Shown here: piece after piece, positions 4,444 to 33,683 of the stretch | Position numbering within the stretch: the first letter of the stretch is position 1 | How the letters are laid out: each line of letters opens with the position of its first letter | Assembly (NCBI GenBank): GCA_035574435.1 | Contig: DATLYU010000016.1 | Location: forward strand, 1 to 56,004 | Length of the DNA: 56,004 nucleotides | Source: Gaiellaceae bacterium | Lineage (GTDB): Bacteria; Actinomycetota; Thermoleophilia; Gaiellales; Gaiellaceae | Direction: 5' to 3' | The notes under the pieces: model-generated | What the model was told of the DNA's origin: nothing | Databases searched by the model: none | The model's input: only the letters and a program-made list of their open reading frames with translations | Made by a program: the position numbers and the translations under genes

Positions 4444-5581
4444 GCGGCCGGAACCTCCCTGACGAGAGCTGCTGCGTGGCGAGGAGCGTCGCGGCGCACA
4501 GCGCCGCGCCCAGCAGGTACGGGGCCGGGTCGCCGACCGCGCTCGCGAGCGTCCCTCCGAGCACCGGCCCGAGGAGGTTGCCGAGCGCCCAGGCGCTGTT
4601 CATCACCCCGAAGGCGAGGCCCTGTGCGAGGCCGGCGCTCTCCGCCCGATCCGACGTGAGCGCCATTCCGGGCGTGTAGAAGCCGCCGAAGCTGAGCGCG
4701 GCCGCGACGACGAGCACGGCCACGAGCAGCGGCGCCTCGGCCGCGGCGAGCAGCGCGGCCACGACGATCGAGGCGGCGAGGGCGACCCGGACGGGAAGGA
4801 GGCGGCCTCGTCGGTCGGTGGCCCGGCCGAGAAGCGGGTTGATGACCACCTCGAGCAGTCCCGCCGCGAAGAACACGGAGGCGATCCCGAGCGCCGACCA
4901 GCCCCGCTCGTCGAGCGCGAGCGGCGCCAGCACGACGAGCACGCCGAAGAGGAAGGCGGGCAGGGTGTTCAGCCACAGCCCGCCGAGGAAGCGCGGGTCG
5001 CGGAGGGCGCGGGCGAGCCCGCCGCCCGAGAGCGACTCGCCGGGGGCCGCGGGCGCGAGGGCGGAGAGGAGCGCGAAGGCGAGCCCGCAGGCGCCCACGG
5101 TCGCGAACGAGGCGCGGATCCCGACCAGCTCGGCCAGCGCCCCGAACATGGGGCCGAGCACGGCCCCGAACACGGCGGCCCCGAAGGCCGTCCCGATCAC
5201 CTCGCCGCGCTGGCGGCGCGGCGACGCGACCGTCACCCACGCGAGCGCGCCCGCCCAGGTGGTCGTGCTCGAGAGCCCCTGCACGAAGCGGGCGACGCCG
5301 AGGGCGGCAGCGCTGTCTGCCCAGGCGAACGCGAAGCTCGCGGCCCCGAGCAGGAGCAGGCCGCCGACGACCGCGCGCTTGGGCCCGAAGCGGGCGGCGG
5401 CCAGGCCGCCGGGGATGCCGCCGAGCAACGCGCCGGCACCGAAGGAGCCCACGAGCAGGCCGGCGCCGGTCTTCGAGAGATCGAACTCCTCCGCGTAGCC
5501 CGGGACGAGCGGCGTGAGCGCGGTGAACAGCATCGCGTCCACGAACACGATCGCGCTCGCGAGGAGGAGCAGCCGGCGCAC
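4433..5581 (-). CDS. MFS transporter
   Basis: 382 aa, about 12 hydrophobic helices. MFS signature region GAGLLVGSFGAGALLGGIPGGLAAARFGPKR. GTG start at 5581. Confidence 0.85.
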   Translation of the reverse strand: MRRLLLLASAIVFVDAMLFTALTPLVPGYAEEFDLSKTGAGLLVGSFGAGALLGGIPGGLAAARFGPKRAVVGGLLLLGAASFAFAWADSAAALGVARFVQGLSSTTTWAGALAWVTVASPRRQRGEVIGTAFGAAVFGAVLGPMFGALAELVGIRASFATVGACGLAFALLSALAPAAPGESLSGGGLARALRDPRFLGGLWLNTLPAFLFGVLVVLAPLALDERGWSALGIASVFFAAGLLEVVINPLLGRATDRRGRLLPVRVALAASIVVAALLAAAEAPLLVAVLVVAAALSFGGFYTPGMALTSDRAESAGLAQGLAFGVMNSAWALGNLLGPVLGGTLASAVGDPAPYLLGAALCAATLLATQQLSSGRFRPRAA

Positions 5582-5588
5582 GCCGCCG

Positions 5589-5594
5589 AGGATA
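5589..5594 (-). promoter_or_regulatory. -10-like TATCCT (minus strand), 7 nt before the MFS start
   Basis: The reverse complement reads TATCCT-cggcggc-GTG. Confidence 0.35.
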
Positions 5595-5665
5595 CGCGCA
5601 CGCCGGGGCCCGCCCGCCGGCCTCCGTCCACGGCGCGCCGACCTTCTTTCGCCGCAACGAAAAAT

Positions 5666-5765
5666 GCACCGAGCCGGTGACGCCTTCGTCCGGCCTCCCG
5701 ACTGACCGCCGCCGAAGCGACTGCCGATCGGAGGGCCATCAACCTCGGACGCTCCGTGCTCGGTG
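5666..5765 (+). ncRNA. candidate structured RNA element, copy 1
   Basis: Closing helix GCACCGAGC (5666-5674) / GCTCGGTGC (5757-5765). Inner helix GGCCTCCCGA/TCGGAGGGCC. Small hairpin GACG-CCTT-CGTC. Confidence 0.45.
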
Positions 5766-5911
5766 CAGTCGCGACTCTATGCGGACAGGTCGGGTCGCGT
5801 CAAGCACCGGCGCGCAGGAATTCCACGCAAATTCCGCAAAACACATGCGGACTGTGGAGCCCGCTCGTTGCCGCCTCGCCTGGCAACGACGACGTCGGAC
5901 CACGAAGAAAT

Positions 5912-6011
5912 GCACCGAGCCGGTGACGCCTCCGTCCGGCCTCCCGACTGACCGCCGCCGAAGCGGCTGCCGATCGGAGGGCCATCAACCTCGGGCGCTC
6001 GTGCTCGGTGC
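5912..6011 (+). ncRNA. candidate structured RNA element, copy 2
   Basis: Same helices as copy 1, plus a perfect GCCGC-CGAA-GCGGC hairpin. Closing helix 5912-5920 / 6003-6011. Confidence 0.45.
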
Positions 6012-6146
6012 AGTCGCGACTCTACGGACCGGGCTGCGGGCGGTCAAGGGCCTGCGGAAGGGCGTTGTCGCAATTTGCGGCTTTTTCTTTTCGCAACGCC
6101 CGTGCTGCAGGTGGCCGCGGGTGCTCTACCGTCCGGGAGAGAAGAA

Positions 6147-6170
6147 CGGCCGGGCCCGAGGGCCCGGCCG
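6147..6170. terminator. perfect 10-bp GC hairpin (CGGCCGGGCC-cgag-GGCCCGGCCG), terminator-like, no U tract
   Basis: Seen directly in the sequence. It lies between copies 2 and 3 of the module array. Confidence 0.4.
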
Positions 6171-6178
6171 CAAGAGTT

Positions 6179-6279
6179 CGCCGAGCCGGGAACGCTTTCG
6201 TCCACCTTCCCGACGAACCTTCCGCTTCCGCGTAGTGCTCCTCGGGGGGCTTCGTCCTACCGGCGCCCCGTGCTCGGCG
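6179..6279 (+). ncRNA. candidate structured RNA element, copy 3 (diverged)
   Basis: Closing helix CGCCGAGC/GCTCGGCG; the A:T pair of copies 1/2 is replaced by G:C on both arms. The inner helix CTTCCCGA/TCGGGGGG keeps pairing through two G.U wobbles on the + strand only. Confidence 0.4.
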
Positions 6280-6365
6280 CACGCAGGACTCTTCCACACC
6301 GGAAGGTGTCCTGCAAGACCCCCAGGGAACGAAATTTCGCGGAAATTGCGCCCGCACGTTCCGGC

Positions 6366-6395
6366 TTGCCCGCGTCCCCCGCACCGTCGTAGGAT
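6366..6395 (+). promoter_or_regulatory. putative promoter of the ethanolamine permease operon (TTGCCC-N18-TAGGAT)
   Basis: Hexamers at 6366-6371 and 6390-6395. SD GGAGGGAGG follows, before GTG 6431. Confidence 0.4.
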
Positions 6396-6430
6396 CGTCC
6401 TTTCCGGACGGGTCGGACAGGAGGGAGGCT

Positions 6431-7993
6431 GTGGAGCAACAACGGACTGTCGGTGCCGTCACGTACCGGGAAGCGGGGGCCGAGTACTTCGCGCAACGTC
6501 GGCTCCGCCGCTTCGCGGGCGTCTGGTCGCTGTGGGCGCTCGGAGTCGCGGCCGTCATCTCCGGCGACTTCTCCGGCTGGAACTTCGGGCTGGACGCCGG
6601 CGGGTTCGGCGGCCTGCTCGTGGCCACGCTGATCATCACCGTCATGTACTTCGGGCTCTGCTACTCGATCGCGGAGATGTCGCCTGCGCTCCCGCACACG
6701 GGCGGGGCCTACTCCTTCTCGCGCTCGGCGATGGGGCCCTGGGGCGGGTTCGCGACGGGAGTGGCCGAGACGATCGAGTACGTGGTGACGCCCGCCGTCA
6801 TCGTCACGTTCGCGGCCACCTACCTCGAGTCGATCTTCAACAGCTGGTTCGACTGGAGCCCGGCGACGTGGCTGTGGTGGCTCATCCTGTACGTCGTCTT
6901 CGTCGGGCTGAACGTCTTCGGCGTGGAGGCGAGCTTCCGCTTCGCGGTCTTCATCTGCCTGCTCTCGCTCGGCATCCTCGCGGTCTTCTACGTCGCCTCG
7001 CTCTGGGACTTCTCGTGGAACAACCTGACGAACATCGCGCCGGAGGGCAGCAACAGCGACTGGTTCCCGTTCGGCGCCGTGGAGGGCGTGTTCCTCGCGC
7101 TGCCCTTCGCGATCTGGTTCTACCTGGCGATCGAGGAGCTTCCGCTCGCCGCCGAGGAGTCGCACGACCCCAAGCGCGACATCCCGCGAGGGACGATCTA
7201 CGGCCTCATCACGCTGATCATCACCGGCTTCCTCGTCCTCTTCCTGAACACGGGCGTAACCGGCGCCGAGGAGATCCGCGTGTCGGGCGAACCGCTGCTG
7301 GACGGCTTCCGCGTGATCTTCGGTGAGAGCGAGAACATCTCGAACGTGCTCGGCCTGGCCGCGGTCGCGGGCATCATCGCCAGCTTCCACACGATCATCT
7401 ACGCGTACGGCCGGAACATCTACTCGCTCTCGCGCGCGGGCTACTACCCGCACTGGCTGTCACTCACGCACGGGAAGCGCAACACGCCGTACATCGCGCT
7501 CGTGGCGGGCGCGGTGGTCGGCTTCGGGCTGGCGTTGCTGCTCGACCAGGCGACGAAGCACGAGTGGCTCGGGGGCCACCTGAGCGCGGCGCTGCTCTCG
7601 ATGGCCGTCGGCGGCGCCGTCGTCTCGTACTTCCTGCAGATGGTGTCCTTCATCCTCCTGCGCAGGAAGATGCCGCACATCGAGCGCCCGTACCGGAGCC
7701 CGATCGGCATCCCGGGCGCGGCGGTGGGAGCGCTCATCGCGCTCGTCTCCCTGCTGGCGCTCTTCTGGCGGGAGGACTACCGCCCGGGCGTCGTCGGGGT
7801 GGCGATCTTCTACGTGCTCGCGCTCGCCTACTTCTCGTTCTCGGGGAGGAACAAGCTCGTGCTTTCTCCCGAGGAGGAGTTCGCGCTCACACGCGGCCAG
7901 CACGGGCATCCCGAGACGGAGGGCTACGGCCGGACGCACATCGCGGACATCCCGGCCGAGCCCGGGACTGCGCCGCCCGCGGAGACGACGTAG
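6431..7993 (+). CDS. eat: ethanolamine permease (APC superfamily, EAT family)
   Basis: 520 aa, about 12 TM helices. The N-terminal block VWSLWALGVAAVISGDFSGWNFGL is characteristic of ethanolamine permeases. Strong SD. Confidence 0.8.
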   Translation: MEQQRTVGAVTYREAGAEYFAQRRLRRFAGVWSLWALGVAAVISGDFSGWNFGLDAGGFGGLLVATLIITVMYFGLCYSIAEMSPALPHTGGAYSFSRSAMGPWGGFATGVAETIEYVVTPAVIVTFAATYLESIFNSWFDWSPATWLWWLILYVVFVGLNVFGVEASFRFAVFICLLSLGILAVFYVASLWDFSWNNLTNIAPEGSNSDWFPFGAVEGVFLALPFAIWFYLAIEELPLAAEESHDPKRDIPRGTIYGLITLIITGFLVLFLNTGVTGAEEIRVSGEPLLDGFRVIFGESENISNVLGLAAVAGIIASFHTIIYAYGRNIYSLSRAGYYPHWLSLTHGKRNTPYIALVAGAVVGFGLALLLDQATKHEWLGGHLSAALLSMAVGGAVVSYFLQMVSFILLRRKMPHIERPYRSPIGIPGAAVGALIALVSLLALFWREDYRPGVVGVAIFYVLALAYFSFSGRNKLVLSPEEEFALTRGQHGHPETEGYGRTHIADIPAEPGTAPPAETT

Positions 7994-8066
7994 CGCTCGT
8001 GGTCCTGGAGGTGGAGCGAAGCGGGGCCGGCCGCAGGGCCGGCCCCGCCTCCGACGGGGAGGGGCG

Positions 8067-9401
8067 GTGCTGAGCCTGGAGGAGCTCGAGGGCGCGGTCG
8101 AGCGCGGCGAGATCGACACGGTCGTCGTCGCCTTCACCGACATGCAGGGGCGCCTGCTGGGCAAGCGCCTGCACGGCGAGTTCTTCGTGGACGAGGTCGG
8201 TGCCGGGCACGAGGTCGAGGGCTGCAACTACCTGCTCGCCCTGGACATGGAGATGGACCCGGTCCCGGGCTACGCGATCGCGAGCTGGGAGCAGGGGTAC
8301 GGGGACTTCGGCCTCCGGCCCGACCTGCGCACGCTCCGTCGCATCCCCTGGCTCGACGCGACCGCGCTCGTGCTCTGCGACGTCGAGTGGCACGACGGCT
8401 CGCCCGTCGAGCCCTCGCCGCGGCAGGTGCTGAAGGCGCAGATGGAGCGCGCGGCGCGGCTCGGGTACGTGCCCATGGCGGGCTCGGAGCTCGAGTTCTA
8501 CCTCCTCCGCGAGACCTACCAGGAGGCCTGGGCGCAGCGCTACGAGGACCTCACGCCCTCCGTGCCCTACATCCTCGACTACCACGTCCTCGCGACCACG
8601 TACGACGAGGGCCTGATCCGCCAGATCCGGAACGGCATGCAGGGAGCCGGCATCCGCGTGGAGAGCTCCAAGGGCGAGGCCTGGCCGGGCCAGCACGAGA
8701 TCAACTTCCGCTTCGCGGACGCCCTGACGATGGCCGACCACCACGTCGTCTACAAGAACGGCGCCAAGGAGATCGCGCACCTGAACGGCTGCTCGATCAC
8801 GTTCATGGCCAAGCCGTTCGAGTCCTGGATCGGCAACTCGTGCCACATCCACTCGTCGCTCTTCCGGGACGGCGAGCCGGCGTTCCGCGACGACGACGCG
8901 CTCTTCGAGCGCTGGCTCGCCGGGCAGATCGCCTGCTTCGAGGAGCTGGCGATCTTCCTCGCGCCGACGATCAACTCGTACAAGCGCTACGCGGCGGGGA
9001 GCTGGGCGCCGACGACGCTCGCCTGGGGGCACGACAACCGCACCTGCGGCTTCCGCGTGGTCGGGCACGGCGCGTCGAGACGGGTGGAGACTCGCATCCC
9101 GGGCGGCGACGTGAACCCGTACCTCGCGTTCGCGGCCGTCATCGCCGCCGGTCTGCACGGGATCGAGCGGGAGCTCGAGCTTCCGCCGCCGCTCGAGGGC
9201 AACGCGTACGAGTCGGACGCGAAGCGCTTTCCCTCCTCGCTGCGCGAGGCGATCGCGGCGCTCGAGACGGGGACGATGGCCCGGTCAGCCTTCGGCGACC
9301 AGGTCGTGGACCACTACTTGAACTACGCCCGCACAGAGCAGGCGCTCTTCGACAAGGCCGTCACCGACTGGGAGCGCATGCGCTACTTCGAGCGCGGCTG
9401 A
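8067..9401 (+). CDS. glutamine synthetase-family gamma-glutamyl-amine ligase (GlnA4/PuuA-like; predicted gamma-glutamylethanolamide synthetase)
   Basis: 444 aa with GS beta-grasp and catalytic domains (…GSELEFYLL…, NSCHIHSSL, …RVETRIPGGDVNPYLA…). The gene context points to amines as the substrate. Confidence 0.75.
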   Translation: MLSLEELEGAVERGEIDTVVVAFTDMQGRLLGKRLHGEFFVDEVGAGHEVEGCNYLLALDMEMDPVPGYAIASWEQGYGDFGLRPDLRTLRRIPWLDATALVLCDVEWHDGSPVEPSPRQVLKAQMERAARLGYVPMAGSELEFYLLRETYQEAWAQRYEDLTPSVPYILDYHVLATTYDEGLIRQIRNGMQGAGIRVESSKGEAWPGQHEINFRFADALTMADHHVVYKNGAKEIAHLNGCSITFMAKPFESWIGNSCHIHSSLFRDGEPAFRDDDALFERWLAGQIACFEELAIFLAPTINSYKRYAAGSWAPTTLAWGHDNRTCGFRVVGHGASRRVETRIPGGDVNPYLAFAAVIAAGLHGIERELELPPPLEGNAYESDAKRFPSSLREAIAALETGTMARSAFGDQVVDHYLNYARTEQALFDKAVTDWERMRYFERG

Positions 9402-9457
9402 GCGCGGCCAGCCCCGAGCCGGTGGACGCGAGGCCCACCGGTCCTGGGGCCGCGGCG

Positions 9458-9871
9458 TCAGTGGACGACGAGGACGTCGACCGGCGCGCGGTGCACGACC
9501 TCGTCCGTGGGGCTCGCGCCGAGCAGCCGCGACAGGGCACCGCCTTCGTGCGCGCCGATCACGATGAGGTCGACCTCCTTCTCGGCGGCGAGGTCGAGGA
9601 TCGCGTGCGCGGGGTCGCCCACCGCAGTAACGATCTCGACGTCGGCGACGCCGAGCTCGGCCAGGCGCGCCCGCGCGTCGAGCAGCTCCTGCTCGTGGCG
9701 GCTCGGCGGGTCGGCGGGGTCGTACGGCCCGACGCCGCGCGCGACCTGCAGCACCGGCGCGACGCTCGTCGCGATCACCTTCGCGTGGAAGACCCTGGCC
9801 AGCTCGGCCGCCCGCTCGAGCACGCGCGGCGAGACCGGTCGCTCTTCATAGGCCACGAGGATTCGCTTCAT
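9458..9871 (-). CDS. universal stress protein (UspA family)
   Basis: Start set at MKRILVAY with SD aaaggagga. C-terminal G-x2-G-x9-G(S/T)-like motif GAHEGGALSRLLGASPTDEVV. Sits antisense inside the operon. Confidence 0.8.
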   Translation of the reverse strand: MKRILVAYEERPVSPRVLERAAELARVFHAKVIATSVAPVLQVARGVGPYDPADPPSRHEQELLDARARLAELGVADVEIVTAVGDPAHAILDLAAEKEVDLIVIGAHEGGALSRLLGASPTDEVVHRAPVDVLVVH

Positions 9872-9969
9872 CGGGTTCCTCCTTTCCACGTGCAGGGTGG
9901 CGCGCGCGGCCGGCGAGGGCATCCGGGATCGCCGGCGAAGCGGATGCGGGAAGCTACGGACCCGGTAGC

Positions 9970-10704
9970 GTGCTCTTCGTGGCCGCCAGGCCGGTGATCG
10001 GCATCACGACGTACGCCCAGGAGGCGAGCTGGGGCGTGTGGCGCCTGCCGGCGGCGCTGATCCCGCTCGACTACGTGGATGCGGTCGAGCGAGCGGGCGG
10101 CCGCCCGCTGCTCGTCCCGCCGAGCGAGGAGGGGGTCGAGGAGACGCTGGACGCGCTCGACGCGATCGTCTTCTCCGGCGGCGCCGACGTCGACCCCGCG
10201 CTCTACGGGGCCGACCGGCATCCCGAGACGGACCCGGCGCAGGAGCGCCGCGACGCGGGCGAGCTCGCGCTCTTGCGCGCGGCGCTCGAGCGCGACCTAC
10301 CGGTGCTCGCCGTGTGCCGCGGCGTGCAGCTCCTGAATGTCGCTCGCGGCGGCGACCTCGTCCAGCACCTTCCCGAGCAAGTCGGCAACGACGTGCACAA
10401 GCACGTGCCGGGCACGTTCGCCGAGCATCCGGTCGAGGTGCGGGCCGGCACGCGGCTGGCCGCGCTCGTCGGCGAGCGGAGCGACGTGACCTCGCACCAC
10501 CACCAGGCGCTCGGCCGGCTGGGGGAGGGGCTCGTGGAGGCGGCGTGGGCGGAGGACGGGACGCTGGAGGCGGTGGAGGACCCGGCGCGGCGCTTCCTCG
10601 TCGGCGTCCAGTGGCATCCGGAGGCGGGAGAGGACGACGCGCTCTTCCGCGGGCTGGTGGAGCAGGCGCGGGCCTACCGCGCTGCGCGAGAATCGCGCGC
10701 GTGA
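9970..10704 (+). CDS. gamma-glutamyl-amide hydrolase (class I glutamine amidotransferase, peptidase C26, PuuD-like)
   Basis: Nucleophile elbow AVCRGVQLLN, then HHQAL and VQWHPE. A GTG at 9979 is an alternative start. Confidence 0.8.
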   Translation: MLFVAARPVIGITTYAQEASWGVWRLPAALIPLDYVDAVERAGGRPLLVPPSEEGVEETLDALDAIVFSGGADVDPALYGADRHPETDPAQERRDAGELALLRAALERDLPVLAVCRGVQLLNVARGGDLVQHLPEQVGNDVHKHVPGTFAEHPVEVRAGTRLAALVGERSDVTSHHHQALGRLGEGLVEAAWAEDGTLEAVEDPARRFLVGVQWHPEAGEDDALFRGLVEQARAYRAARESRA

Positions 10705-14294: not shown

Positions 14295-14368
14295 GGGCCC
14301 GTAGCTCAGCTGGTCAGAGCAGCCGACTCATAATCGGTTGGTCCCTGGTTCGAGTCCAGGCGGGCCCA
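14295..14368 (+). tRNA. tRNA-Met (anticodon CAT); could alternatively be lysidine-modified tRNA-Ile2
   Basis: Hand-folded cloverleaf: acceptor GGGCCCG/CGGGCCC, D arm GCTC-AGCTGGTCA-GAGC, anticodon arm GCCGA-CTCATAA-TCGGT, T arm CCTGG-TTCGAGT-CCAGG, discriminator A. The G1:C72 pair rules out an initiator. CCA is not encoded. Confidence 0.9.
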
Positions 14369-32582: not shown

Positions 32583-33683
32583 CTACGACGGGCGCGAGCC
32601 GAGGGTGACGGCGAGCGTGACGCGGCGGCCGTCCCGGAGCACGGTCAGCTCGACGACGTCACCTGGCCGGTGCTCGTCCACCGCGCTCTGCAGCTCCGCG
32701 CTCGTGGCGATCTCGCGCCCGGCGAACGCGACGATGACGTCGCCGCCGGCCGGCAGGCTCTCCCCGTCCACGAGGCGCGCGCCGGTGGCCGGCCGCAGCC
32801 CGGCCTCGTCCGCGGGCGTGCCGCTGCGCACGTCCGTCACCGCCACGCCTTCGGGCACGGTCACCATGGTGATCCCGAGGTACGCGTGCTCGACCTGGCC
32901 GGACGCGACGAGCTGCCGGACGATGGTGCGGACGGTGTCCGAGGGGATCGCGAACCCGACCCCGTCGTTGCCGCCCGACTCAGACTCGATCTGGGCGTTC
33001 ACGCCCACGACCCGGGCCCGCTCGTCGAGCAGGGGCCCGCCCGAGTTGCCGTGGTTGATGGCGGCGTCCGTCTGGATGGAGCTCGTGATCGTGTACCCGT
33101 TCGGTGCCCGCATCTGCCGGTCGAGCGCGCTCACGATGCCGCTCGTCACCGTCCCCTCGAGGCCGAACGGGCTGCCGATTGCCACCACCGGATCGCCGAC
33201 GCGCAGCCGCGAGGAGCTGCCGAGCCGGAGCGGATGGAGCTTCGCCGCCGGCGCGGCGACGTCCAGCACCGCGAGGTCGGTCGAGGCGTCCACGCCCACG
33301 ATCTCGGCCTCGTACGCCGTGCCGTCCCAGAAGCGGACGGAGACGGGACCGCCGCCGGCCACGACGTGCTGGTTCGTGACCACGTGGCCCTGGGCGTCGA
33401 GCACGAAGCCGGACCCTTGCGCCCGGCCCTCCTGCCCGAGCCCGGAGGAGCCGCCCGCGGCCGTGATCTCGACGACGCCACGGTGCGTGCGGGCATGGAT
33501 CTCCGCGACGCCGAGCCCCTGCCCGCTCGCCGTCCGCTCGCTCCCCGTGACCGGCACCTCGCGCACGACCGTGCCGCCGTCGCCGGCCAGCAGGGCAAAC
33601 GCGCCGGCGCCGGCCAGGGCGCCGGCACCGAGCGCCGCCAGCAGGGCGCCGAGGAGGAGGGGAAGACGCGTTGGCGAGGTCAT
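32583..33683 (-). CDS. htrA: HtrA/DegP-type S1C serine protease with PDZ domain
   Basis: N-terminal TM. Catalytic triad context VVTNQHVV (His), TDLAVL (Asp), GNSGGPL (Ser). C-terminal PDZ domain. Confidence 0.9.
   Translation of the reverse strand: MTSPTRLPLLLGALLAALGAGALAGAGAFALLAGDGGTVVREVPVTGSERTASGQGLGVAEIHARTHRGVVEITAAGGSSGLGQEGRAQGSGFVLDAQGHVVTNQHVVAGGGPVSVRFWDGTAYEAEIVGVDASTDLAVLDVAAPAAKLHPLRLGSSSRLRVGDPVVAIGSPFGLEGTVTSGIVSALDRQMRAPNGYTITSSIQTDAAINHGNSGGPLLDERARVVGVNAQIESESGGNDGVGFAIPSDTVRTIVRQLVASGQVEHAYLGITMVTVPEGVAVTDVRSGTPADEAGLRPATGARLVDGESLPAGGDVIVAFAGREIATSAELQSAVDEHRPGDVVELTVLRDGRRVTLAVTLGSRPS

Follow-up and report, generated by a model that had tools for sequence, protein, structure and literature searches.

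Several kinds of bacterial small RNA (sRNA) are comparable to the element described here. Sibling sRNA genes are exemplified by PrrF1/PrrF2 of Pseudomonas, OmrA/OmrB of E. coli, AbcR1/AbcR2 of Rhizobiales and Qrr1-5 of Vibrio; RNAs whose ends pair in a long hairpin by 4.5S RNA of the signal recognition particle (SRP; RF00169) and 6S RNA (RF00013); and repeated structured RNAs near ethanolamine-utilization genes by tandem riboswitches, ANTAR/EutV substrates and the adenosylcobalamin (AdoCbl) sRNA of Firmicutes. The element in question occupies an 850-bp gap between a gene of the major facilitator superfamily (MFS) and a gene for an amino-acid/ethanolamine permease in a 56,004-nt stretch of DNA from a Gaiellaceae bacterium (assembly GCA_035574435.1, contig DATLYU010000016.1; this whole stretch is referred to below as the window). 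In the reading that we consider quite probable, the gap contains three independently transcribed, minus-strand genes for small structured RNAs, arranged B-A-A towards the MFS gene, which would act in trans, probably by binding a protein. These RNAs represent a previously undescribed family that is conserved across the uncultured soil order Gaiellales.

The Gaiellales RNA resembles the sibling sRNAs in the presence of multiple homologous genes, each with its own predicted promoter and intrinsic terminator, in a common upstream site for a putative regulator, and in the partial divergence of the paralogs. In contrast, the sibling sRNAs possess a conserved single-stranded seed, act by base pairing and mostly rely on Hfq, whereas the Gaiellales RNA is a near-complete rod with invariant internal loops, and no relationship to them was found either at the sequence level or in Rfam. 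With the ethanolamine-related RNAs it shares the repetition of a structured RNA near genes of this pathway, but it lies on the opposite strand, has its own predicted promoters and terminators, and its association with ethanolamine genes is not conserved. Unlike an ANTAR substrate, in which paired hexaloop hairpins overlap a terminator upstream of the regulated genes on the same strand, it forms one tetraloop-capped rod; the cobalamin aptamer of the AdoCbl sRNA is absent, and no riboswitch aptamer class was matched in Rfam 15 at E <= 10.

The gap is bounded by the MFS gene (start 5581, minus strand) and the permease gene (start 6431, plus strand), both identified through Pfam, and includes three homologous modules of ~110 nt:

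5660..5767, minus strand: sRNA gene copy 1 (type A, ~108 nt), 5'-UGCACCGAGC...GCUCGGUGCAUUUUU-3', a rod-like hairpin capped by a UUCG tetraloop
5906..6012, minus strand: sRNA gene copy 2 (type A), with the 3' end GCAUUUCUUCGUGGUCC
6171..6281, minus strand: sRNA gene copy 3 (general type B, 111 nt), whose tetraloop is GGAA and whose conserved loops are GGUAGGACGAAGC and GGUGGACGAAAGCG

A repeat search aligned copies 1 (5660-5779) and 2 (5906-6024), spaced by 246 nt, with 97% identity in a stretch of 93 nt and 100% in another of 25 nt, and bore out the three tandem modules, with this same period, that had been recognized in a preliminary description of the window. Copy 3 (6172-6293) is 75-76% identical over two flanking blocks. 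It is 94-97% identical to its counterpart in related contigs, more than copies 1 and 2 are, and therefore is not a decaying copy. Outside the gap, neither the 19-mer core of the module nor a 27-nt degenerate pattern is found in the window (chance expectation 0.25 and 0.00, respectively).

Pattern scans combined with a covariance model (CM), built from 16 copies in the minus-strand orientation, recovered >260 distinct copies of this RNA, nearly all of them in Gaiellaceae, Gaiellales or Thermoleophilia genomes or in metagenomes of soil. The first scan, with the 27-nt degenerate pattern against species-representative genomes, yielded at least 120 loci, ~110 of those listed with true copies; among the matches listed, nearly all source genomes belong to Gaiellaceae, Gaiellales, Thermoleophilia or uncultured Actinomycetes (the numbers of loci per genome, of arrangements and of the neighbors of B copies given below likewise refer to the matches listed). 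A second scan, of metagenome contigs with a pattern consisting of the two conserved loops only, added a further 120 loci with 101 distinct RNAs. The closest homologs of the permease are also from Gaiellaceae and other uncultured Actinomycetota, and the syntenic contigs carry the same three-module array. In agreement with the earlier impression that no known riboswitch consensus is present, searches of Rfam 15 at E <= 10 with the window region and a copy of the general type produced only chance-level sRNA matches over the terminator hairpin. At the Rfam gathering threshold, the whole window gave one tRNA and 18 related loci gave one tmRNA, ARAGORN found nothing in the gap, and the literature search found nothing on non-coding RNAs of Gaiella or Thermoleophilia, nor the conserved loop sequences in a relevant context. 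The tRNA gene at 14295-14368 on the plus strand (72 bits) is the sole gathering-level match in the window. Coding potential of the modules was considered and rejected: both a conserved start codon and a conserved reading frame are absent among the homologs, and no frame would survive the differences in U-run length between copies.

The consensus fold of the family is a single long rod with a tetraloop cap, in which the 5' GCRCCGAGC pairs with the 3' GCUCGGYG; the RNA is 108-112 nt long, rarely up to 139 nt. On the minus strand, copies 1 and 2 fold into one long hairpin with a U-run immediately 3' of the closing stem (minimum free energy -62.9 kcal/mol, z = -3.7, and -64.4 kcal/mol, z = -3.4, respectively). 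Among 140 CM-aligned copies, 96.7% of the helix cells are standard pairs and 23 of the 27 pairs are changed on both sides; none of 500 shuffles was as good, and when the partner was slid by 1-3 columns, 29-35% of the cells were paired. An independent metagenome set of 107 copies is nearly identical in these respects (95.7% paired, 19 of 27 pairs changed on both sides, slid controls at 26-35%) and adds compensatory changes in the otherwise invariant closing helix. Both sets uphold the notion, first drawn from the window, of a structured RNA element with compensatory changes. The closing helix and its exchange of an A:U pair, present in copies 1 and 2, for G:C in copy 3 are real, and the 138 distinct homologs are split between A-U (70) and G-C (68) at this position. 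The small hairpin ACG-CYTT-CGT that had been included in the initial model is not an element of the conserved fold, where these bases form pairs with the rod's 3' half.

The strand is indicated by the same data. In structure-blind MAFFT alignments of the minus strand, the predicted pairs include 372 G.U against 30 A.C in type B and 146 against 8 in type A, and RNAalifold yields -43.2 kcal/mol compared to -19.6 for the reverse complement. The minus-strand CM scores are 121.4 bits for copy 1, 111.9 for copy 2 and 105.4 for copy 3. We assign the RNA to the minus strand because the promoters and terminators described below, the G.U/A.C asymmetry and the alifold energy all agree.

The preliminary description had instead favored the plus strand, on account of G.U wobbles in copy 3, and suggested a tandem cis-regulatory RNA (a riboswitch or an ANTAR-like element) of the ethanolamine permease operon. 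The wobbles turned out to be a local CC/AA internal loop of the copy 3 sub-lineage, against the family-wide ratio given above. The array does precede the permease gene in the window and in three close relatives, and the plus strands of copies 1 and 2 form stable folds (-48 and -58 kcal/mol), which is to be expected of any long inverted repeat. Nevertheless, we regard a plus-strand leader as highly improbable: the G.U:A.C ratio is at least 12:1 in favor of the minus strand, where the alifold energy is also twice as good; the top plus-strand CM match in the window, over copy 2, reaches 28.8 bits against 105-121 bits on the minus strand; all predicted promoters and terminators are on the minus strand; and the likely -10 box of the permease gene (6390-6395) is located downstream of all the modules. 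The array is transcribed away from the permease gene, and in relatives it stays with the MFS gene while the permease gene is replaced or found elsewhere. Specifically, the divergent neighbor of the arrays is an ethanolamine permease in 4 cases, a DAO/GCV_T oxidase in 6, a short-chain dehydrogenase/reductase (SDR) in 3, or another gene; in one locus (L010), an SDR gene intervenes between the array and the permease gene, and in another relative, the gap upstream of the permease gene is only ~105 bp whereas a gap of ~1 kb remains beside the MFS gene. Most members of the family are far from ethanolamine genes, and the single-copy form has bacA, the primary sigma factor gene or smpB as its neighbor, so that the proposed link to ethanolamine does not hold.

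Another explanation involves no RNA function at all. Given that the module is a long imperfect inverted repeat in tandem and that some genomes have two loci, it might be a DNA-level repeat, that is, a mobile palindrome of the repetitive extragenic palindromic (REP) or miniature inverted-repeat transposable element (MITE) type, or an array of protein-binding palindromes. We give this explanation next to no credence. Strand-asymmetric wobbles are meaningless in duplex DNA; the helices remain paired through compensatory changes and the loop bases are invariant on one strand only; and each copy comes with a promoter, an operator and a terminator, all predicted, at fixed distances. Dozens of scattered copies had been named beforehand as the mark of a MITE/REP element; the copy number per genome is low: a locus has 1-3 copies, and of ~105 genomes in the pattern scan of species representatives, only 5 had two loci and the others one. 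One such genome combines a BAA array (L065) with a separate single B copy (L119). The family is essentially absent from viral contigs, in which pattern scans yielded one 20-bit partial match and otherwise none; this match (L253, 6938-7020, IMG/VR) lacks the apical domain and probably occurred by chance. Target-site duplications and terminal repeats are not evident in the alignment of the units, although no dedicated search for them was made.

Two types of the RNA can be distinguished. The consensus of type B, usually 112 nt long, begins with UGCRCCGAGCACGGAGCGCGAGUAGGUCGAAGC, followed by one strand of a variable helix; the apical part consists of NGUA, a 3-bp stem with a GNRA loop and GAAR after the other strand of the stem; the 3' part comprises the other strand of the variable helix and GUGGACGAAAGCGCNACCGGCUCGGYGAAUUUUUU. 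The invariant central internal loop is formed by the 5' NNUAGGNCGAA facing the 3' GGACGAAA; the latter is present in 124 of the 131 B copies and the former in nearly all of them. The apical arrangement NUA / GNRA / GAN is found in 108 of the 131, and the apical stem covaries (CGC/GCG, GCC/GGC, CCC/GGG) and accepts insertions. Copies 1 and 2 of the window belong to type A, in which the central loop is remodelled to GAGGUUGAUGG and the tetraloop is UUCG, and this type is a derived, lineage-specific paralog. A single B copy is found in 85 loci, BB or BBB in 14, BAA, BAB or BA in 17, and a lone A in 2. The B-A-A array of the window is a derived form; the ancestral form is the single-copy one, with the neighbors named above. 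A divergent clade (L133, L157, L181, L183, L186, L203, L232, L250) has the closing helix CCCGCC(G/A)GGC...GCC(C/U)GG(U/C)GGG and an enlarged apical domain; its -62 palindrome (see below) is degenerate, and 10-12 nt after the RNA, there is a TAGGAT box followed by a leaderless gene starting with MDFTLSDEQQLI, which we take, purely as a guess, to encode an acyl-CoA dehydrogenase-like protein.

Each module is predicted to have its own promoter, an upstream palindrome or a one-mismatch variant thereof, and a terminator. A scan of 5400-6600 for sigma-70 consensus promoters detected exactly two sites, both on the minus strand, with 0.0 expected; the promoter of copy 3 was read from the alignment of homologs, which have TTGAYC-17/18-TAGRTT in the same columns:

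5774..5803, minus strand: promoter of copy 1, -35 TTGACG (5803-5798), 18-nt spacer, -10 TAGAGT (5779-5774)
6019..6047, minus strand: promoter of copy 2, -35 TTGACC (6047-6042), 17-nt spacer, -10 TAGAGT (6024-6019)
6288..6316, minus strand: weaker promoter of copy 3, -35 TTGCAG (6316-6311), 17-nt spacer, -10 AAGAGT (6293-6288)

In every module, the -10 box ends 6 nt 5' of the first base of the RNA. A -10 box TAnnnT located 5-7 nt before UGC, with a -35 TTG at a spacer of 16-18 nt, is present in ~160 of 165 distinct homologous units; in 124 of the 165 the spacer is 17 nt, and the -10 variants include TAGGTT, TAGATT, TAGAGT and similar ones. The spacer of the promoter additionally contains the palindrome GGAC-N2-3-GTCC at -29 in 17 of 272 copies, compared to 2 of 272 in a control window. 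The carriers are mainly the B copies of BAA arrays and loci adjoining a MarR gene (L061, L084, L087, L094, L103, L109, L142 and others), and the palindrome may be the operator of a repressor. Copy 3 of the window has a different inverted repeat at this position; it is the hairpin of ~12 bp at 6283-6314 noticed earlier.

Upstream of the promoters, there is a palindrome with the consensus GCAA(A/T)TTGC:

5827..5835, no strand assigned: operator-like site of copy 1, GCAAATTCC, with one mismatch to GCAAWTTGC, ~64 nt upstream of the RNA start
6070..6078, no strand assigned: operator palindrome of copy 2, GCAATTTGC, with its center 62 nt upstream of the RNA start
6341..6349, no strand assigned: operator-like site of copy 3, GGAAATTGC, ~64 nt upstream of the RNA start

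The site of copy 2 is the only exact GCAAWTTGC in the window (0.02 expected), whereas GGAAATTGC is a recurrent one-mismatch variant in the family and, in the window, stands between the divergent promoters of copy 3 and the permease gene. Across the family, the palindrome is centered at -62 +/- 1 in 87 of 164 units; of its 93 occurrences in 985 kb of loci, 87 are in this position. The palindrome is probably the binding site of a dedicated dimeric transcription factor, and its position is typical of activators. The AAATT site and the ~60 nt of homology beyond the modules, which had been taken for a downstream extension, thus acquire a different identity: the homology is genuine, and it corresponds to the -10, the -35 and the palindromic operator of the minus-strand genes.

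At the 3' end, 185 of the 273 distinct copies continue from the closing stem straight into a U-run. The copies that lack it frequently have a separate terminator, that is, a hairpin followed by U residues, and the remainder have only a pyrimidine-rich tail with GGUCC. The relevant features in the window are:

6136..6171, minus strand: separate intrinsic terminator of copy 3, GCGGCCGGGCC-CUCG-GGCCCGGCCG followed by UUCUUCUCUCC, with 11 pairs in the terminator scan
5897..5901, minus strand: copy 2, GGUCC motif within the 3' tail

The former includes the GC hairpin at 6146-6171 that had been noted at the outset; it exists, is terminator-like with its T-run on the minus strand, and comes directly after copy 3. 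In L001, L002, L006 and other loci this terminator is kept, with better U-runs. The second motif, GGTCC at 7-10 nt after the closing stem, is found in 72 of 131 copies of the general type and 9 of 32 type A copies, and may be part of a 3' tail, a 3'-end signal or a second binding site. GGTCC is retained where the U-run has decayed (AAUUCCUGGUCC and similar sequences) and echoes the GGUC/GGAC bases of the central loop (L013-L252). A weak hairpin with a T-run (GCGGGCTCCACAGTCCGC ATGTGTTTTG) at 5847-5864 on the minus strand, between copy 2 and the copy 1 operator, might serve copy 2 as a back-up terminator.

The genomic neighborhoods were delineated with GC3-based gene calling and with stop-to-stop open reading frames that are over-extended at the 5' end, and gene families were assigned by BLAST clustering, with Pfam for representatives; because the gene caller is crude, the distances to neighbors are approximate. 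The B copies are mostly located between divergent bacA (23 loci) or the primary sigma-70 gene (12 loci) and the gene for a small, two-helix membrane protein; in 34 loci, this gene comes after the general-type RNA in the same orientation. This protein (e.g., L014, L017, L018, L020, L083 and ~30 others) consists of ~65 amino acids, starts with MHLRSPS, and combines two hydrophobic helices with a basic tail; no Pfam family matches it. Its gene has its own leaderless promoter, TAGGAT-N7-ATG, and the protein is a possible functional partner or target of the RNA. In three loci (L019, L072, L098), the RNA is encoded between the genes for RNase R and smpB; in L098, a tmRNA (170 bits) is found ~2.4 kb further along on the same strand. 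Across the family, the next gene 3' of the RNA is on the opposite strand, that is, convergent, in 31 of 102 loci, and is otherwise heterogeneous.

The BAA and BAB arrays differ from the general form in this respect: in all 15 in which the downstream gene was called, it is the same MFS gene, on the same strand. The MFS gene of the window has its own -10 box, gcATATCCT (TATCCT at 5589-5594, 7 nt before GTG), and the prediction of this box in the initial account is backed by conservation: of 16 related loci, 11 keep gcATATCCT-N7-8-GTG/ATG, and in the remaining five this place is taken by another TAnnnT box. Because this conserved box is only 7-8 nt before the start codon, the MFS mRNA apparently is leaderless. 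The cluster of genes for the permease, a glutamine synthetase (GS)-like protein (Gln-synt_C) and a Peptidase_C26 protein on the other side of the array (window 6431-10704) differs among L001, L002, L006 and L010-L012. In relatives, the position between the GS-like and C26 genes is occupied by a gene for a Formyl_trans_N protein, an unannotated 214-aa protein, or nothing, and in L012 the permease gene is divergent from the GS-like gene.

The constant position ahead of the MFS gene raises the question of whether the A copies, or the B-A-A array as a whole, form a minus-strand cis leader or attenuator of the MFS-methyltransferase operon. Transcription would then be switched by terminating at the closing stem and U-run or reading through them, perhaps governed by a ligand in the conserved internal loop in the manner of a rod-like riboswitch. 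Apart from the 15 of 15 called arrays, in which the MFS gene stays while the divergent neighbor changes, such a role would fit the terminator-like closing stem and U-run, the stability of which could depend on the fold, the internal loops, whose two strands are both invariant like those of small aptamers, and the GGUCC past the U-run that suggests some read-through. We nevertheless deem this scenario unlikely. The MFS gene has its own conserved -10 and leaderless mRNA, and the distance between the U-run of the last RNA and this -10 box varies from 12 to ~190 nt; every array copy has a full predicted promoter and operator; where the U-run has decayed, a new terminator is gained rather than one lost; and the general form is present in many other contexts, including the convergent ones. 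A fixed place upstream of the MFS-methyltransferase genes more likely reflects inherited synteny or co-regulation than a leader function. A riboswitch or 5' leader in general was also rejected as a classification, with the RNA on the strand opposite to the permease gene, heterogeneous or convergent next genes, and promoters of their own for the MFS and small-membrane-protein genes.

Among described RNAs with long hairpins, 4.5S and 6S RNA share with the Gaiellales RNA the paired ends, the conserved internal loops and a near-consensus promoter, and the general form is usually present once per locus, often among housekeeping genes including the primary sigma factor gene. The 4.5S RNA has, in addition, a similar length of ~110 nt, and in SRP helix 8 a 3-bp stem with a GGAA/GNRA tetraloop likewise caps a small symmetric loop. 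However, neither RF00169 nor RF01854 was matched at E <= 10, and the apical loop is AGUA/GAAG instead of the universally conserved SRP loop. Likewise, there is no match to RF00013, the length is ~112 nt compared to ~150-200 nt for 6S RNA, and the central loop is small and invariant in sequence in contrast to the large central bubble of 6S RNA, a mimic of an open promoter. Unlike both, the Gaiellales RNA comes in 2-3 tandem copies, in second loci and with a putative dedicated regulator site. At the level of motifs, the apical NGUA-CGC-GGAA-GCG-GAAG, with its AGUA...GAA signature, short stem and GNRA loop, is reminiscent of the sarcin-ricin loop AGUACGAGAGGA, and the central loop GAGUAGG / GACGAAA of the 5S rRNA loop E strand GAGAGUAGG; this resemblance comes from primary sequence, the 'bulged G' position varies (G, C or U), and the three-way junction and an Rfam 5S match are absent. 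Resemblances to the hammerhead, SRP, 6S, Y RNA and 5S RNA were all set aside as lacking Rfam support. There is no Rfam match, and neither 4.5S nor 6S RNA fits; the RNA is best classified as a new family of bacterial sRNAs.

Under the reading that we prefer, three separately transcribed sRNA genes, the RNAs would act in trans, and a dedicated dimeric regulator would bind the palindrome at -62. The RNA would bind a protein, as a decoy or a scaffold, rather than pair with an antisense target; protein binding appears likelier because the invariant bases are in two-stranded internal loops and there is no open single-stranded seed. The A paralogs would have diverged in specificity. By assumption, the Gaiellales probably lack the usual sRNA chaperones. 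A search of the window outside the modules for complements of the conserved loops yielded no persuasive target, with none below 2-3 mismatches except for one site with 1 mismatch at 33049-33062; there are many matches to GCCATCAACCTCGG with 3 mismatches, which look like noise from codon composition. A 'small family of sRNAs' made up of 'separate transcription units', the fallback offered in the preliminary description, fits the evidence well.

Several considerations weigh against this interpretation. The trans-acting, protein-binding role is suggested solely by the pattern of conservation, and the promoters, start sites and 3' ends are predictions. Copy 3 of the window has a poor -10 (AAGAGT) and a poor -35 (TTGCAG). 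The MFS gene lies 3' of B-A-A on the same strand in all 15 called arrays, which would fit a local role in cis too. The conserved GGUCC follows the U-run, suggesting that some transcripts may pass the first terminator. Finally, the first search pattern demanded the 3' strand of the closing stem and hence biased the first set of homologs; the set obtained with the loops alone agreed with it.

A broader version of the same reading is more tentative, and we would put it at somewhat less than an even chance: the B form could represent a new class of regulatory or housekeeping RNA spread through the whole order, a ~112-nt rod with a GNRA cap and two loop-E-like modules, expressed from a near-consensus promoter under its own regulator. 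It would bind a conserved cellular protein, and B-A-A would be a lineage-specific expansion with altered specificity. Potential partners of the B form would be a ribosomal or translation-factor protein whose usual ligand is the sarcin-ricin loop or loop E, or some part of the transcription machinery whose gene is nearby.

Altogether, the family is well delimited and can be deposited, with >260 distinct sequences, clear covariation, and a defined set of predicted promoter, operator and terminator. For annotation, the 850-bp gap should not be described as a riboswitch-type leader of an ethanolamine/gamma-glutamylation operon. GCAAWTTGC at -62 is a candidate conserved operator for a transcription factor, and the series of paralogs B, BB, BBB and BAA offers natural material on the duplication and divergence of sRNA genes. 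Gaiellales and other Thermoleophilia are among the most abundant Actinomycetota of soil and have almost no cultured members; should the B form prove to be an order-wide protein-binding RNA, it would be the first defined riboregulator of Gaiellales.

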